Sequence record: MK327937.1
Origin: Escherichia phage vB_EcoM_G10400
Strand: one strand, 5' to 3'
DNA: 64,000 bases
A program made the translations under genes and the position numbers. Below the pieces are notes generated by a model. The model ran no database searches. It worked only from the letters and a program-made list of their open reading frames with translations, and had not been told where the DNA came from. Shown piece after piece: positions 16,845 through 48,857 of this stretch. Within the stretch, counting starts at the first letter, position 1, and every line of letters begins with the position of its first letter.

Positions 16845-19800
16845 CAGTAAAAGCACCTTCAGTCACTAGTCTCAGAATTTCCAAGTTATCCGCTAATCAG
16901 GTGCAAGTACGCTGGGATGACGTTGGTGCTAATTTCTACTACTTTGTAGAAATCGCTGAGACAAAATCAAACTCGGGAGAAAATCTCCCGAGTAATCAAT
17001 ATCGTTGGATTAATTTAGGATATACAGCAAATAATAGTTTCTTTTTTGATGATGCTGATCCACTGACATCATATGTTATTAGAGTAGCTACAGCTGCGCA
17101 AGATTTTGAGCAGTCTGATTGGATTTATACCGAAGAGTTTGAAACTTTTGCTACAAATGCTTATACATTTCAAAACATGATTGAAATGCAATTAGCCAAT
17201 AAATTCATTCAGGAAAAATTTACTCTTAATAATTCTGATTATGTTAATTTCAATAATGACACAATAATGGCTGCGTTGATGAATGAATCATTTCAGTTCA
17301 GCCCATCGTATGCTGATGTCTCATCAATCAGTAATTTTATTATTGGTGAAAACGAGTATCATGAAATACAAGGTTCTATTCAGCAAGTATGTAAGGATAT
17401 TAACCGAGTTTATTTGATGGAATCAGAAGGGATTCTATATCTTTTTGAGCGTTATCAACCTGTAGTTAAAGTATCCAATGATAAAGGACAAACCTGGAAA
17501 GCTGTAAAGCTCTTCAATGACCGTGTAGGATATCCTTTATCTAAGACTGTATATTACCAATCTGCAAACACAACATACGTTCTAGGATACGATAAGATTT
17601 TCTATGGCCGTAAATCGACTGACGTTAGATGGTCAGCAGATGATGTCAGATTCAGTTCACAGGATATAACATTTGCTAAATTAGGAGACCAACTTCATTT
17701 AGGATTCGATGTTGAAATCTTCGCTACTTATGCGACTTTACCAGCGAATGTATACCGTATAGCTGAAGCCATTACTTGTACGGATGATTATATCTATGTT
17801 GTTGCCAGAGATAAAGTTAGATATATAAAAACGAGTAATGCACCTATAGATTCTGACCCGTTATCACCAACATACTCGGAAAGACTTTTTGAACCTGATA
17901 CAATGACTATAACTGGAAATCCTAAAGCTGTATGCTATAAAATGGATTCTATTGGTGATAAAGTTTTTGCTCTTATTATTGGTGAAGTTGAAACATTAAA
18001 TGCCAATCCGAGAACTTCAAAAATAATTGATTCCGCTGATAAAGGAATATATGTTTTGAATCAAGACACGAAAACATGGAAAAGAGTTTTCGGTAATACC
18101 GAAGAAGAAAGAAGACGTATTCAACCTGGATACGCAAACATGTCAACTGATGGTAAATTAGTTTCTCTGTCTTCGAGTAATTTTAAATTTTTAAGTGATA
18201 ACGTTGTTAATGACCCTGAAACTGCTGCAAAATACCAGTTAATCGGTGCTGTCAAATATGAATTTCCTCGCGAATGGTTAGCTGATAAACATTATCATAT
18301 GATGGCGTTTATAGCGGATGAAAAATCTGATTGGGAGACTTTTACTCCTCAACCGATGAAATACTACGCAGAACCGTTCTTTAATTGGTCTAAAAAATCT
18401 AACACTCGTTGTTGGATAAACAACTCTGATAAAGCTGTTGTAGTTTATGCAGATTTGAAATACACCAAAGTTATTGAAAATATTCCAGAAACGTCACCAG
18501 ATAGATTAGTGCATGAATACTGGGATGATGGCGATTGCACTATAGTAATGCCAAATGTTAAATTCACTGGATTTAAAAAATACGCATCAGGAATGCTTTT
18601 TTATAAATCTTCTGGTGAAATAATTTCTTATTATGATTTTAACTATCGTGTGAGAGATACAGTAGAAATTATTTGGAAGCCGACTGAAGTATTTTTAAAA
18701 GCATTTTTACAAAACCAAGAGCGTGAAACTCCTTGGTCACCAGAAGAAGAACGTGGATTAGCTGACCCTGATTTAAGACCATTAATTGGCACAATGATGC
18801 CTGATTCTTATTTGTTACAAGATTCTAATTTTGAGGCATTTTGCGAAGCATATATTCAGTATCTTTCTGATGGATATGGAACTCAGTATAACAATTTACG
18901 AAATTTAATTCGTAACCAATATCCACGAGAAGAGCATGCGTGGGAATATTTATGGTCAGAAATATATAAAAGAAACATTTATTTAAATGCTGACAAACGC
19001 GATGCTGTTGCAAGATTTTTTGAATCACGTAGCTATGATTTTTATTCTACTAAAGGAATTGAAGCATCATATAAATTTCTTTTTAAAGTTCTTTATAATG
19101 AAGAAGTTGAAATTGAAATTGAATCGGGAGCAGGTACTGAATATGATGTAATCATTCAATCTGATTCTCTTACAGAAGATTTAGTAGGACAAACTATCTA
19201 TACTGCAACTGGAAGATGTAATGTTACTTATATAGAAAGAAGTTATTCTAATGGTAAATTGCAATGGACTGTGACTATACATAATCTTTTGGGGCGGTTA
19301 ATAGCAGGACAAGAAGTTAAAGCAGAAAGACTTCCGGGCTTTGAAGGTGAAATTATTCGTGGGGTTAAAGGAAAAGATTTGCTTCAAAATAATATAGACT
19401 ATATTAATAGAAGTAGATCATATTATGTAATGAAAATTAAATCCAATTTACCTTCTTCCCGCTGGAAATCTGACGTTATTCGTTTTGTTCACCCAGTAGG
19501 ATTTGGATTTATAGCAATCACGCTTTTAACTATGTTTATTAATGTCGGTTTAACTCTTAAACACACAGAGACAATAATTAATAAATATAAAAACTATAAA
19601 TGGGATTCTGGATTGCCTACTGAATATGCTGATAGAGTAGCTAAATTGACTCCAACTGGTGAAATTGAGCATGATTCGGTAACAGGCGAAGCAATTTATG
19701 AGCCTGGCCCAATGGCTGGTGTAGAATATCCTCTTCCTGATGACTATAATGCTGAAAATAACAATTCAATATTTCAAGGTCAATTGCCGTCTGAACGACG

Positions 19801-19939
19801 TAAATTAATGAGTCCTTTATTTGATGCATCTGGAACAACATTTGCGCAATTTAGAGATTTAGTTAATAAACGTCTAAAAGATAATATAGGAAATCCAAGA
19901 GACCCTGAAAATCCAACACAGGTTAAAATAGATGAATGA
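16841..19939 (+). CDS. 7: baseplate wedge protein gp7
   Basis: 1032 aa; length and order match T4. Confidence 0.85.
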   Translation: MTVKAPSVTSLRISKLSANQVQVRWDDVGANFYYFVEIAETKSNSGENLPSNQYRWINLGYTANNSFFFDDADPLTSYVIRVATAAQDFEQSDWIYTEEFETFATNAYTFQNMIEMQLANKFIQEKFTLNNSDYVNFNNDTIMAALMNESFQFSPSYADVSSISNFIIGENEYHEIQGSIQQVCKDINRVYLMESEGILYLFERYQPVVKVSNDKGQTWKAVKLFNDRVGYPLSKTVYYQSANTTYVLGYDKIFYGRKSTDVRWSADDVRFSSQDITFAKLGDQLHLGFDVEIFATYATLPANVYRIAEAITCTDDYIYVVARDKVRYIKTSNAPIDSDPLSPTYSERLFEPDTMTITGNPKAVCYKMDSIGDKVFALIIGEVETLNANPRTSKIIDSADKGIYVLNQDTKTWKRVFGNTEEERRRIQPGYANMSTDGKLVSLSSSNFKFLSDNVVNDPETAAKYQLIGAVKYEFPREWLADKHYHMMAFIADEKSDWETFTPQPMKYYAEPFFNWSKKSNTRCWINNSDKAVVVYADLKYTKVIENIPETSPDRLVHEYWDDGDCTIVMPNVKFTGFKKYASGMLFYKSSGEIISYYDFNYRVRDTVEIIWKPTEVFLKAFLQNQERETPWSPEEERGLADPDLRPLIGTMMPDSYLLQDSNFEAFCEAYIQYLSDGYGTQYNNLRNLIRNQYPREEHAWEYLWSEIYKRNIYLNADKRDAVARFFESRSYDFYSTKGIEASYKFLFKVLYNEEVEIEIESGAGTEYDVIIQSDSLTEDLVGQTIYTATGRCNVTYIERSYSNGKLQWTVTIHNLLGRLIAGQEVKAERLPGFEGEIIRGVKGKDLLQNNIDYINRSRSYYVMKIKSNLPSSRWKSDVIRFVHPVGFGFIAITLLTMFINVGLTLKHTETIINKYKNYKWDSGLPTEYADRVAKLTPTGEIEHDSVTGEAIYEPGPMAGVEYPLPDDYNAENNNSIFQGQLPSERRKLMSPLFDASGTTFAQFRDLVNKRLKDNIGNPRDPENPTQVKIDE

Positions 19940-20936
19940 TTCAAGTGTTATCTATCGTGCGATAGTTACTTCAAAATTTAGAACAGAAAAAATGTTGAAT
20001 TTTTATAATTCAATTGGAAGTGGTCCGGATAAAAACACTATCTTTATCACATTTGGAAGATCAGAACCGTGGTCATCAAATGAAAATGAGGTGGGCTTTG
20101 CCCCACCTTATCCTACCGATTCTGTATTAGGTGTAACTGACATGTGGACTCATATGATGGGAACAGTAAAAGTTCTTCCATCAATGCTTGATGCAGTTAT
20201 TCCTCGTCGAGATTGGGGAGATACTAGATATCCGGATCCATACACATTTAGAATTAACGATATTGTAGTGTGTAACTCAGCTCCTTACAACGCTACTGAA
20301 TCAGGCGCGGGATGGTTAGTGTATCGCTGTTTAGATGTTCCTGATACTGGAATGTGCTCAATAGCATCTTTAACTAATAAGGATGAATGCCTTAAGTTAG
20401 GTGGAAAATGGACTCCTTCTGCTAGGTCAATGACTCCTCCTGAAGGTCGAGGAGATGCTGAAGGAACAATTGAACCTGGGGATGGATATGTTTGGGAATA
20501 TTTATTTGAGATTCCGCCTGATGTATCTATAAATAGATGTACGAATGAATACATCGTGGTTCCTTGGCCTGAGGAATTAAAAGAAGACCCGACTAGATGG
20601 GGGTATGAAGATAATCTCACTTGGCAACAAGATGATTTTGGATTAATTTACCGTGTTAAGGCAAATACTATCCGTTTTAAAGCATATTTAGATTCAGTTT
20701 ATTTTCCTGAAGCTGCATTGCCGGGAAATAAAGGATTTAGACAAATATCAATAATTACGAATCCTCTTGAAGCTAAAGCTCATCCAAATGACCCAAATGT
20801 TAAAGCTGAAAAGGATTATTATGATCCGGAAGATTTAATGAGGCATTCGGGCGAAATGATTTATATGGAAAATAGGCCACCTATTATTATGGCAATGGAT
20901 CAGACAGAAGAAATCAATATTCTGTTTACATTTTAA
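19932..20936 (+). CDS. 8: baseplate wedge protein gp8
   Basis: 334 aa; followed by terminator hairpin and late promoter. Confidence 0.85.
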   Translation: MNDSSVIYRAIVTSKFRTEKMLNFYNSIGSGPDKNTIFITFGRSEPWSSNENEVGFAPPYPTDSVLGVTDMWTHMMGTVKVLPSMLDAVIPRRDWGDTRYPDPYTFRINDIVVCNSAPYNATESGAGWLVYRCLDVPDTGMCSIASLTNKDECLKLGGKWTPSARSMTPPEGRGDAEGTIEPGDGYVWEYLFEIPPDVSINRCTNEYIVVPWPEELKEDPTRWGYEDNLTWQQDDFGLIYRVKANTIRFKAYLDSVYFPEAALPGNKGFRQISIITNPLEAKAHPNDPNVKAEKDYYDPEDLMRHSGEMIYMENRPPIIMAMDQTEEINILFTF

Positions 20937-43587: not shown

Positions 43588-43785
43588 TCACCTTTTATTA
43601 ATATGTCTTTTTCTATAGACAACTTTTTCTCGAGTTTCAAATTTATTCTTAGCAGTCATAGCTCGAGCCCATAATACAGCCACTTCTTTCGCCTGTAAGT
43701 TTAATTCACGAGCAATTTCAATGAATGACTTTCCAGACTCATGAAGAGTAAACACCACAACCTCAGTTCTCATAATCAATCTCAT
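43588..43785 (-). CDS. hypothetical small basic protein, possible HTH (24.3-like by position)
   Basis: 65-aa ORF with an HTH-like segment SFIEIARELNLQAKEV. Confidence 0.45.
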   Translation of the reverse strand: MRLIMRTEVVVFTLHESGKSFIEIARELNLQAKEVAVLWARAMTAKNKFETREKVVYRKRHINKR

Positions 43786-43886
43786 GTTATCGAGTTGATG
43801 CCATTATATACATCATTTTCTGAGTATGTTTTGTGTGCTTTCAAAATGAAGAAAGGGGCCGAAGCCCCTTATGATTATGATTATGA

Positions 43887-45305
43887 TTATGGATAGGTAT
43901 AGATGATACCAGTTTCTAAAGCAGTTTTATGAATGATGTATCCATTGCGTGATTCTTGAACATCAACTTCTGGATAGTCTTTCATCATCTTCTGAAGAGT
44001 GTAACGATGCAGGTAGTATTTACTGTCTGGATCTTCAGTTTTCCAATCTTTACCTTCTTCGGTCATTTTTTGGATTTCATCCATAACCCACCAACCGCAC
44101 CAGATATAAGCTGAAGTACGATGTGGAAGAGGATGAACATAAGGTAATTCACCTTCTGGCTCTGGAGCAACTTTATCAGTTACCTGAACTTGACCTTCCG
44201 CCGTAATAGTTTTGCTATCATAATCAGTTGCAGTAACGACAGCAGTAACTTCAATAGTTTGACTTCCAATAGATGAGGTATCAACGGTATATACATTAGT
44301 TGACCCTTCTACAGGAGAAGAATCTTTCTTCCATGAATACGCAATTTGCGCTTCTTCTGGAGCATCAGTGACATTAGCAGTAAATGTAGCCGAAGCATCT
44401 TGTTGAACGTTAATAGAAGGAGGAGTCAATGTAACCTGTGGATTCATTGTCTTCTTATTAACTGTTAATGATACTTCATTCGAAGTAACTTCCTTTTCAT
44501 TGTAATTTTCAGCAGTTACTTGGGCTACGCATTTAATTCTTTTTACTCCACTTGTAGTAGGAGTATAGCTAAATGTAGCGTTAGTTGCTTCACCCACAGG
44601 AGAATCATCTACATACCACTGATACGTAGCAGATGCCCCATCAGGTTGAGAAGCTAAGGCAGCAGTAAATTCAACGGCTGTTCCAATCACTCCAGCTGGA
44701 GGACTATCAGGAGTTACTGCCAAGGTAGTCGTCTGCGTCTTTTTATTAACAGTCAATGATACTTCATTAGAAGTAACGCTTAGTGCATCATAATCTGCCG
44801 CAGTTACTTGAGCTACACACTTGATTTTTTTAACTCCGCTTGTGTCAGGAGTGTAATTGAATGTAGCGTCAGTTGCTTCGTCTACAGGAGAACCGTCAAC
44901 GTGCCATTGATACGTAGCGTTTGCACCTGATGGCTGTGAAGCTAAGGCAGCGGTAAATTCAATTGGAGTTCCAATCACTCCAGCATCAGGGCTACCAGGA
45001 GTTACAGCTAAAGTAGTTGTTTGTGTCTTATTTTGAACTGTGATAGTTGTACTAATTTCTGCTGTTTCAGGTTCAGATTCTGCAACTTGATTGGTTGCAA
45101 CTACTTTAATAGTCTTTTGACCGGCAGGTCCTTTTAGTACATAACTAAAAGTTGCTGACGTTTCTTCCTGTGGAGCGTCGTCTACAGTCCAAGCATATGT
45201 AATAGGTCCATCTCCAGTTTGACCACTGGGTGTAGCAGTAAACTGCTGAGTCTGATCTATAACTCCAGTAGGTGTTTTAGGAGTTATATCAACTGTAAAA
45301 GCCAT
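43887..45305 (-). CDS. hoc: highly antigenic outer capsid protein Hoc with four Ig-like domains
   Basis: 472 aa; repeated Ig-like modules (two near-identical ~96-aa repeats) plus a C-terminal capsid-binding region. Confidence 0.85.
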   Translation of the reverse strand: MAFTVDITPKTPTGVIDQTQQFTATPSGQTGDGPITYAWTVDDAPQEETSATFSYVLKGPAGQKTIKVVATNQVAESEPETAEISTTITVQNKTQTTTLAVTPGSPDAGVIGTPIEFTAALASQPSGANATYQWHVDGSPVDEATDATFNYTPDTSGVKKIKCVAQVTAADYDALSVTSNEVSLTVNKKTQTTTLAVTPDSPPAGVIGTAVEFTAALASQPDGASATYQWYVDDSPVGEATNATFSYTPTTSGVKRIKCVAQVTAENYNEKEVTSNEVSLTVNKKTMNPQVTLTPPSINVQQDASATFTANVTDAPEEAQIAYSWKKDSSPVEGSTNVYTVDTSSIGSQTIEVTAVVTATDYDSKTITAEGQVQVTDKVAPEPEGELPYVHPLPHRTSAYIWCGWWVMDEIQKMTEEGKDWKTEDPDSKYYLHRYTLQKMMKDYPEVDVQESRNGYIIHKTALETGIIYTYP

Positions 45306-45314
45306 AAGTTATCC

Positions 45315-45995
45315 TTATTTTAATGTTACGAAAGAAGAATTACGTGTTTCACGAATTAGAACTGATCCGTCACGATTAATGTAGTAAATTAAGCTAAATA
45401 AAGTTTGGTGTGCCGACGCATGTTCAAAACTAGTTGGGTGAGATTTCCAATCTGGGGTTTCAGCAATCCATTGATAAATCCACCAAGGAACAGTGCAGAA
45501 TCCTGGATTTTTTCCAATCAGCTGAAGATTCGGACTAAAGTTTTCCGGAAGAGTAAATACAGACGGCTTTTCGGATTCAATAATCTCAGCTACAGCCTGT
45601 TCGAATTTTTCTTCAACAAAAGGAGTATCTTCAATTAAAACAGTGGTATTTTCAGGAATTTTATCCGTTTCTACTACTTCAATTTTAATGTCAGATTTAA
45701 CCGGAGAATCAATCAGAAGTGCTGCCTCTGGATTGACTTCTTCATCGTCATATTTTAATCCGTCTGCGGCATCAGCAGCATCAATTAAGTCTTTAATAGA
45801 TAACCCATCAGTCTCTGGCATAGGTTCACTAGCGAGCTTCTGGAGAGCTTCTTCAATATCATTAACGATATTATCAAAAGATTTATTCTTTTTGACCTTT
45901 ATACCAAACTGTTCAGCATATTCAGCTAATTTAGCTTTAGCTTCTTTATTATCATCAAGAGCCTTCAGCTCTGCAATATAATCTTTATCTATCAT
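45315..45995 (-). CDS. inh: Inh, inhibitor of prohead protease
   Basis: 226 aa; position between hoc and segE. Confidence 0.75.
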   Translation of the reverse strand: MIDKDYIAELKALDDNKEAKAKLAEYAEQFGIKVKKNKSFDNIVNDIEEALQKLASEPMPETDGLSIKDLIDAADAADGLKYDDEEVNPEAALLIDSPVKSDIKIEVVETDKIPENTTVLIEDTPFVEEKFEQAVAEIIESEKPSVFTLPENFSPNLQLIGKNPGFCTVPWWIYQWIAETPDWKSHPTSFEHASAHQTLFSLIYYINRDGSVLIRETRNSSFVTLK

Positions 45996-46221: not shown

Positions 46222-46839
46222 ATGTACCACTTTGTATATGAAACAACAAATCTAATAAATGGTAAAAAGTATATAGGAAAACACTCTACTGATGACTTGA
46301 ATGATGGTTACCTTGGTTCCGGTAAGGCAATTCAGCAGGCTATAAAGAAATATGGTGAAAACAATTTCTCTAGAACAATACTAAAAGAGTTTAAAACTTC
46401 CGAAGAAGCGTACATGTATGAAGAAGAAATTATAACTCCTGAAATAATAAAAAGCAAAAATTATTATAATATGAAACCTGGTGGAATTGGTGGAATTGTT
46501 ATGACTACAGAGGTTATAGCAAAGATGAAAGAATCTTCCGCTAAGAGATTTGAAAACTCACCGGGCACGGTATTAGGTACAACTTGTTACACTAATGGAA
46601 CTAAAAATATTTTTATTAAACCTGGAGAACTTGTTCCAGAAGGATTTGTAAAAGGAATGGTTCATCCTAATAGAAAGTCCAGAAAAGGATGTAAAGTCAA
46701 ACCGACTACCACAGGAACTTTTTGGGTCAATAACGGTGCAATAAATAAATTAATACAACCAGACGGTATTATTCCCGACGGATTTATTAAAGGTCGTCTC
46801 ATGAAAAGAGATTCTAAAGGCAAATTTAGTAAGGCATAA
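46222..46839 (+). CDS. segE: GIY-YIG homing endonuclease (SegE-like)
   Basis: 205 aa; MYHFVYETTNLINGKKYIGKHS...GYLGSG GIY-YIG motif; paralogous to SegB at 4591-5256. Confidence 0.8.
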   Translation: MYHFVYETTNLINGKKYIGKHSTDDLNDGYLGSGKAIQQAIKKYGENNFSRTILKEFKTSEEAYMYEEEIITPEIIKSKNYYNMKPGGIGGIVMTTEVIAKMKESSAKRFENSPGTVLGTTCYTNGTKNIFIKPGELVPEGFVKGMVHPNRKSRKGCKVKPTTTGTFWVNNGAINKLIQPDGIIPDGFIKGRLMKRDSKGKFSKA

Positions 46840-48829: not shown

Positions 48830-48857
48830 GATTGTCTCCTCTGAATTATATATCTAT

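Follow-up and report, generated by a model that had tools for sequence, protein, structure and literature searches.

The hoc gene in the window (the whole 64,000-nt stretch of DNA analysed here, from Escherichia phage vB_EcoM_G10400; the accession number in GenBank: MK327937.1) encodes a head decoration protein with four Ig-like domains against three in phage T4, because one domain is present as two diverged tandem copies. With a probability of about 0.9, we regard it as the common 472-aa, four-Ig allele of the Tequatrovirus head-decoration gene, an array-type locus that holds here one extra D2-type unit. Since an RB30-type Hoc with the same gene, the same length and an annotated repeat has been deposited, the feature of the window is already known, and the four-Ig Hoc is ordinary, widespread and earlier annotated in GenBank. 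Moreover, the two copies are closer to units of other phages (88–99.7% identity) than to each other (77%), and the second copy is recombinant, which points to a recombining array of Ig cassettes.

Identity and genomic context of the hoc gene

The hoc CDS is located at 43887..45305 on the minus strand and encodes the highly immunogenic outer capsid (head decoration) protein with 472 amino acid residues, followed by a stop codon. Compared with T4 Hoc (PDB 5vf3 chain Z, 376 aa), the protein gives an E value of 1.9e-212, and the alignment consists of two blocks, in which aa 1–125 pair with T4 1–125 and aa 201–472 with T4 105–376 (530 bits for the latter), indicating a single 96-aa insertion in the window protein relative to T4. 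It is 100% identical to the deposited Hoc of Escherichia phage vB_EcoM_G10400 (P0009). The exact Hoc sequence gave no contig match in the assembly index, and the exact genome is absent from the copy of the phage collection that was searched, where the best match reached 98.0%. The gene inh (45315–45995, a 226-aa ORF) lies upstream of hoc, and ORFs of 65, 92 and 334 aa (the last RNA ligase 2-like) lie downstream. In the T4 reference record, hoc (1131 nt) is flanked by inh and 24.3/24.2/rnlB, and the position of the window gene between the same neighbours on the same strand agrees with that annotation. The features of a Hoc protein that can be read from a sequence are all present; these are the anchor domain, the string of Ig-like domains and the position in the genome.

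Some differences were seen in the neighbourhood. The ORF at 43588–43785 (minus strand), at the position of T4 24.3, encodes 65 aa against 56 aa (171 nt) in T4, and T4 24.3 runs 14 nt into the start of 24.2, whereas the window counterparts are 3 nt apart. The ORF at 46222–46839 (plus strand, 205 aa) occupies the position of T4 segE, immediately upstream of inh on the other strand, and is as long as segE, which encodes a GIY-YIG homing endonuclease (618 nt); several relatives have no gene at this position, and inh is followed there directly by the helicase gene. A GC-rich, terminator-like hairpin with a T-rich tail, recognized as a consensus match only, is found at 43853..43870 (minus strand; AAGGGGCTTCGGCCCCTT, then TCTTCATTTT) and lies 17 nt past the hoc stop codon; a 'terminator' is annotated in some related genome records inside the query span of hoc plus 100-nt flanks. 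The canonical T4 late-promoter motif TATAAATA is absent on the minus strand from hoc/inh to position 48855, and therefore the promoter for hoc is left unassigned.

Domain organization of Hoc

According to PMC10385173, T4 Hoc is a 180-Å fibre composed of three Ig-like domains together with a C-terminal domain, whose capsid-binding role is given in the same source. The window protein begins with Ig-like domain 1 (aa 1–92; 45030..45305), which aligns to T4 Hoc 1–92. It is followed by D2-type Ig-like unit 1, of the 'u1 type' (aa 93–188; 44742..45029), which is the upstream repeat copy, and by D2-type Ig-like unit 2, of the 'u2 type' (aa 189–284; 44454..44741), which is the downstream copy and the closer counterpart of T4 domain 2. 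Ig-like domain 3 in T4 numbering (aa 285–376; 44178..44453), which is the fourth here, aligns to T4 Hoc 189–280, and the capsid-binding domain at the C terminus (aa 377–472; 43890..44177), which is not Ig-like, matches T4 Hoc 281–376. All five are encoded on the minus strand. Pfam models above their cut-offs were PKD, PKD_4, Ig_2 and BiPBP_C. The best stretches of BiPBP_C (aa 123–165) and Ig_2 (aa 126–186) are in unit 1, and PKD matched two stretches, the better one in unit 2 (aa 195–267). On domain 3, Ig_3 (aa 289–355; 26.8 bits, cut-off 30) and I-set (aa 289–373; 18.1 bits, cut-off 23.7) stayed below the cut-off.

An AlphaFold2 model, for which an alignment of 28 homologues of 472 aa each was used as input, contains four all-beta domains at about aa 4–91, 96–187, 195–283 and 290–376, with block pLDDT values mostly of 80–95. 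The block means are 81–93 for the strands of domain 1 (aa 4–91), and, in domain 3 (strands at aa 290–376), 87–95 as far as aa 370 and 78 over aa 371–380. The best Foldseek matches of the model in the PDB consist of Ig-like or cadherin-like repeat domains arranged in strings, mostly four-Ig fragments, including Sidekick Ig1-4, Dscam Ig1-4 and ICAM-5 D1-D4. The C-terminal domain was modelled poorly (pLDDT below 55), probably owing to the shallow alignment (28 sequences with at least 88% identity), and this part of the model was discarded for its low confidence. At the sequence level the same domain is 95% identical to T4 in DNA with a dN/dS of 0.06, its protein is nearly identical to T4 Hoc 281–376, and it does not resemble the Ig units (z about 0).

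Divergence of the two D2-type units

Tandem Repeats Finder reported one array at 44449–45029 with a period of 288, 2.0 copies, 78% matches and a score of 715, and a second repeat finder gave two copies of 288 nt with 77% identity. The copies at 44742–45029 and 44454–44741 are in frame and encode aa 93–188 and 189–284. Local alignment of copy 1 with copy 2 gave z = 67 against shuffled controls, so the repeat is real and far beyond chance, whereas either copy aligned with domain 1 or domain 3 at z = 11–15 only; between domain 1 and the D2-type units, 33–36 residues are identical. In addition, the peptide SLTVNKKTQTTT, which spans the unit-unit junction and marks the tandem, is present in the window Hoc.

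The initial annotation had described a 472-aa Hoc against about 376 aa in T4, with tandem repeats that give four Ig-like domains instead of three. The ORF does encode 472 aa and T4 Hoc has 376 aa, and the coordinates of the repeats, their frame and the quoted peptides were exact. The alignment with T4 Hoc, which it had proposed as a check, leaves a single D2-type unit and three domains in T4 and one 96-aa gap, and together with the four beta-sandwich domains of the AlphaFold2 model it bears out the domain count. The copies were also called near-identical, which they are not. Identical positions amount to 222/288 in DNA (77.1%) and 77/96 in protein (80.2%), the longest identical run in register is 17 nt, and dS between the units is 1.01 with a dN/dS of 0.13 (Nei-Gojobori), compared with a dS of 0.17–0.36 between orthologous units of the window and other phages. 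Third codon positions hold 41 of the 66 nucleotide differences. Both D2-type units are maintained under purifying selection, and, as judged from their divergence, they are old paralogues and not a fresh duplication.

Distribution of the four-Ig allele and length classes of Hoc

The allele was counted by searching a 40-aa peptide across the unit-unit junction (…SLTVNKKTQTTT…) in the phage collection at E ≤ 1e-7. This peptide was found in 244 phage records at 275 places. Any match to hoc was obtained in 678 phage records, about 654 of them at an identity of at least 80%, and hence the tandem D2-D2 arrangement is carried by about 37% of the close hoc-bearing records. Counting by whole-gene megablast coverage was dropped, as three-Ig genes also reach 100% query coverage there, being reported as two pieces joined together. 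Genes taken at even intervals from the match ranking and classified by their span in the record comprised 18 four-Ig, 33 three-Ig and 2 shorter ones. The junction search and the span sample together indicate that roughly one third of the sequenced T4-type phages have a Hoc with at least four Ig-like domains, and such phages include HP3, ime09, phiD1, PST, RB27, AR1 and wV7. Moreover, Hoc proteins of exactly 472 aa form 27 further clusters at 90% identity, some of which have 58–167 members from independent assemblies.

The known lengths fall into classes. Hoc has 283 aa in Mosigvirus AV112 and in the PNJ-9 type (PMC11853027), with a single D2 and no D3, 376 aa in T4 with one D2-type unit, and 472 aa in the window and in RB30 with two. 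Three D2-type units and five Ig-like domains are found in the class of 568/570 aa (UGKSEcP1 and UGKSEcP2), and four D2-type units and six Ig-like domains in the class of 664 aa (slur03), the last assignment following from 664 = 376 + 3 × 96. The slur03 gene (NC_042129.1, piece positions 985–2979; 1995 nt) encodes the longest Tequatrovirus Hoc met here, and its second unit begins with KEQTTT, where the others begin with KTQTTT. For Hoc homologues in general, PMC10385173 gives one to ten Ig-like domains. In the library searched, the literature yielded general statements of this kind on the domain number only, and no paper on the RB30 repeat or on 'four Ig-like domains' in Tequatrovirus Hoc; PMC10580926 had nothing on the subject.

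Some deposits deserve a remark of their own. The record of 'Staphylococcus phage SAJK-IND' (MG010123.1; 32,172 bp) contains at 18685–20103 a full T4-type hoc with 94.8% identity to that of the window, and this deposit, labelled as a Staphylococcus aureus phage, is probably mislabelled or contaminated. In MZ501066.1 (FriedrichMiescher) and MK327940.1 (vB_EcoM_G29), the annotation divides hoc in two ('Hoc part 1 | part 2' and 'PKD domain protein (x2)'), and the match in G29 consists of two pieces spanning 1474 nt. These two-part genes look like frameshifted or interrupted alleles, which fits the non-essentiality of Hoc.

Recombination among the units

The hoc genes were cut into 288-nt units and compared pairwise. 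In DNA, unit 1 of the window is 99.7% identical to unit 1 of UGKSEcP2, 93% to unit 1 of slur03, 88% to unit 1 of RB30 and 85% to the one D2 that AV112 has, but only 77–80% to unit 2 of the window and T4 D2. Unit 2 of the window is 92% identical to unit 2 of UGKSEcP2, 89% to unit 2 of RB30 and 88% to T4 D2, and 77% to its own neighbour. A third unit type is represented by unit 3 of UGKSEcP2, which is 97.6% identical to unit 4 of slur03. Clustering of the 158 units contained in the 120 best database proteins agreed with this: a few types were obtained, each of which prefers one position and also occurs at others. Since the unit types are shared by position across phages, the paralogues predate the divergence of these phages. 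T4 retains the 'u2' type and AV112 the 'u1' type.

Unit 2 of the window is itself recombinant. It follows unit 2 of UGKSEcP2 over the first 29 informative sites (146/150 identical in the first 150 nt) and then unit 3 of UGKSEcP2 at unit nt 219–251 (63/66 in the last 66 nt). The breakpoint lies between unit nt 213 and 219 (window 44523–44529), with a maximum chi-square of 34.1 and a permutation p of 0.0002. The switch and the patch together occupy 44491..44529 on the minus strand, and the patch encodes the peptide ENYNEKE. The middle section of the unit (nt 143–213) is mixed, and the last informative site reverts to the unit-2 state. The ENYNEKE patch is also present in the position-2 units of P0001 and slur03, which are five- and six-Ig alleles, and thus the history of the window unit is not unique to it. 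By domain, the window is 99.7% identical to UGKSEcP2 in unit 1, 98.6% in the C-terminal domain, 91% in D3 (44178–44453) and 86% in D1 (45030–45305), and the difference of 9–14% in D1 and D3 indicates that the alleles are mosaics produced by several exchanges. Alleles of hoc are mosaic on a fine scale, down to single domains. We also considered that T4 D2 might combine window units 1 and 2 in a mosaic; this was rejected because the unit-3-type patch in window unit 2 explains the pattern better; against the units of UGKSEcP2, T4 D2 gave weak recombination signals (p = 0.04–0.08).

Origin of the tandem units

Tandem repeats are in general prone to mis-assembly, and the exact protein, as mentioned above, has no match in the contig index, so the second copy might be suspected to be a repeat expansion in a genome that truly has one D2 unit like T4. 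We give this suspicion practically no weight and consider it effectively refuted already. Copies that differ at 66 of 288 positions and share no run longer than 17 nt are distinguished by reads and k-mers, and their differences are structured by codon (41/66 at third positions, dN/dS of 0.13). Moreover, the identical protein is deposited for vB_EcoM_G10400, the 27 other clusters of 472 aa include one with 167 members, and the unit-unit junction occurs in 244 phage records. A recent, lineage-specific duplication of 288 bp in the window phage or its immediate ancestors, which was the implicit picture in the initial annotation, would account for an exact in-frame tandem with a period of one domain, but it is very improbable. 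The dS of about 1.0 between the copies is three to six times that between orthologous units of different phages, the units are far closer to their counterparts in UGKSEcP2 (99.7% and 92%) than to each other (77%), and the arrangement is common to RB30, HP3, ime09, phiD1 and many other phages. Taken together, the dS of about 1.0, the 17-nt run, the identical G10400 protein and the many 472-aa clusters exclude, for practical purposes, both an expansion by the assembler and a recent duplication, and the same evidence from divergence and clusters makes 'repeat collapse' an unrealistic worry. The locus had been flagged as a likely site of repeat-collapse or expansion error and, by implication, as a novelty. 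The former is contradicted by the shortness of the shared run and by the presence of the 472-aa architecture in hundreds of independent assemblies, and the latter by the like annotation of RB30 hoc (AY101183) and by the carriage of the feature in about 37% of the close hoc-bearing phage records.

A narrower proposal concerns the last step in the history of this allele. It assumes that, in a five-Ig hoc (u1-u2-u3), units 2 and 3 underwent an unequal crossover which deleted one 288-nt cassette and left a chimeric unit 2. Such a step would be a refinement of the best explanation and is compatible with it, and the unit 2 of the window, with its resemblance to UGKSEcP2 unit 2 at nt 1–213 and to unit 3 at nt 219–251 (p = 0.0002), as well as the identity of 99.7% in unit 1 and 98.6% in the C-terminal domain to UGKSEcP2, are as such a crossover would leave them. 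However, patchy gene conversion fits equally well with the return of the last informative site to the unit-2 state and the mixed section at nt 143–213, the position-2 units of P0001 and slur03 already have the ENYNEKE patch, and D1 and D3 are 9–14% off UGKSEcP2 in alleles that are mosaic through several exchanges. We consider the proposal less likely than not.

Returning to the four-Ig allele of an array-type locus, we note that hoc behaves like a short row of Ig-domain cassettes of 288 nt each, in which the D2-type units number from one to four (376, 472, 568/570 and 664 aa). Their copy number probably varies through gene conversion and unequal homologous recombination, between cassettes as well as between alleles, when infections are mixed. 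The recombinant 3' patch of window unit 2 fits such an exchange-driven array. As to the origin of the tandem itself, an ancestral duplication, a loss in T4-like alleles and a recombination joining diverged alleles are all possible. A wider form of the idea is that D2 units, in at least three sequence types, make up a recombining array that holds between one and four of them and would tune fibre length and glycan valency population-wide; the window allele would then have come from a five-Ig array by contraction or conversion. In this full form it is doubtful and on the whole unlikely to be right, although its parts concerning the copy-number classes and the recombinant unit are observed here.

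Possible function and significance

By homology, the C-terminal domain would anchor the window Hoc at the centres of gp23 hexamers as in T4. The near-identity of the anchor, together with PMC10385173, suggests that Hoc is present as one copy per gp23 hexamer, 155 per capsid, and is non-essential. The extra domain would lengthen the fibre of roughly 180 Å by about one Ig domain, or roughly 45 Å, a value obtained by dividing 180 Å over the four domains of T4 Hoc. In the Hoc of PNJ-9, residues S183, L184 and T185 of domain 2 are reported to bind MUC2 and to form the site of contact with MUC2/fucose (PMC11853027). In the window protein this D2 surface appears to be duplicated, with the S-L-T motif at S183–T185 and again at S279–T281, and the latter is a putative second glycan-binding site. 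Doubling of the D2 surface could raise the reach or the avidity for glycans in mucus adherence, and a longer fibre with altered adhesion would be a reasonable expectation.

The allele of Hoc with an extra Ig-like domain has been deposited and annotated and is widespread, and the variable number of Ig domains in Hoc is already stated in the recent literature on this protein, so that the finding has little value as a discovery; the cassette-like recombination of D2 units is its one modestly interesting aspect. In practice, the 376-aa architecture of T4 should not be assumed for 'T4-like' phages in annotation pipelines, phage display or phage therapy. The residue numbering of the reported mucin-binding sites is shifted by 96 after residue 188 in the window allele, so that D246 of T4 corresponds to D342. 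Furthermore, the series of 283, 376, 472, 568 and 664 aa is a convenient natural panel in which fibre length or D2 valency could be set against mucus adherence.

Comparison with known systems

The closest described counterpart is the Hoc of phage RB30 (the accession number in GenBank: AY101183.1; protein AAM52483.1), which likewise has 472 aa, a CDS of 1419 nt and two tandem 288-nt D2-type units, and in whose record a repeat_region is described as 'intragenic repeat led to appearance of additional immunoglobulin-like domain'. The units are orthologous by position, with a DNA identity of 87.8% between the two first units and 88.9% between the two second units, against 76–80% in the cross-pairs. 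Nevertheless, RB30 hoc is a separate allele with an identity of about 90% over the whole length of the protein, and its unit 2 has DDYNAKE where unit 2 of the window has the ENYNEKE patch. T4 hoc (protein NP_049793.1; PDB 5vf3 and 8t1x) is the orthologous gene at the equal genomic position, and its D2 is the counterpart of window unit 2 with 88% DNA identity, but it has a single D2-type unit and three Ig-like domains, with no counterpart of window unit 1. The Hoc proteins of UGKSEcP2 (570 aa), slur03 (664 aa), and AV112 and PNJ-9 (283 aa) likewise combine a string of Ig-like domains with a C-terminal capsid anchor that is conserved (PMC10385173, PMC11853027). What sets the Tequatrovirus length variants apart from the window is solely how many 96-aa D2-type units they have, three or four in UGKSEcP2 and slur03 against two in the window, and AV112 and PNJ-9 have one such unit and no D3. 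At a greater distance stands the Hoc of Serratia phage Muldoon, a distant homologue of the same design with 1174 aa and 10 Ig-like domains, which is known here from the literature alone.
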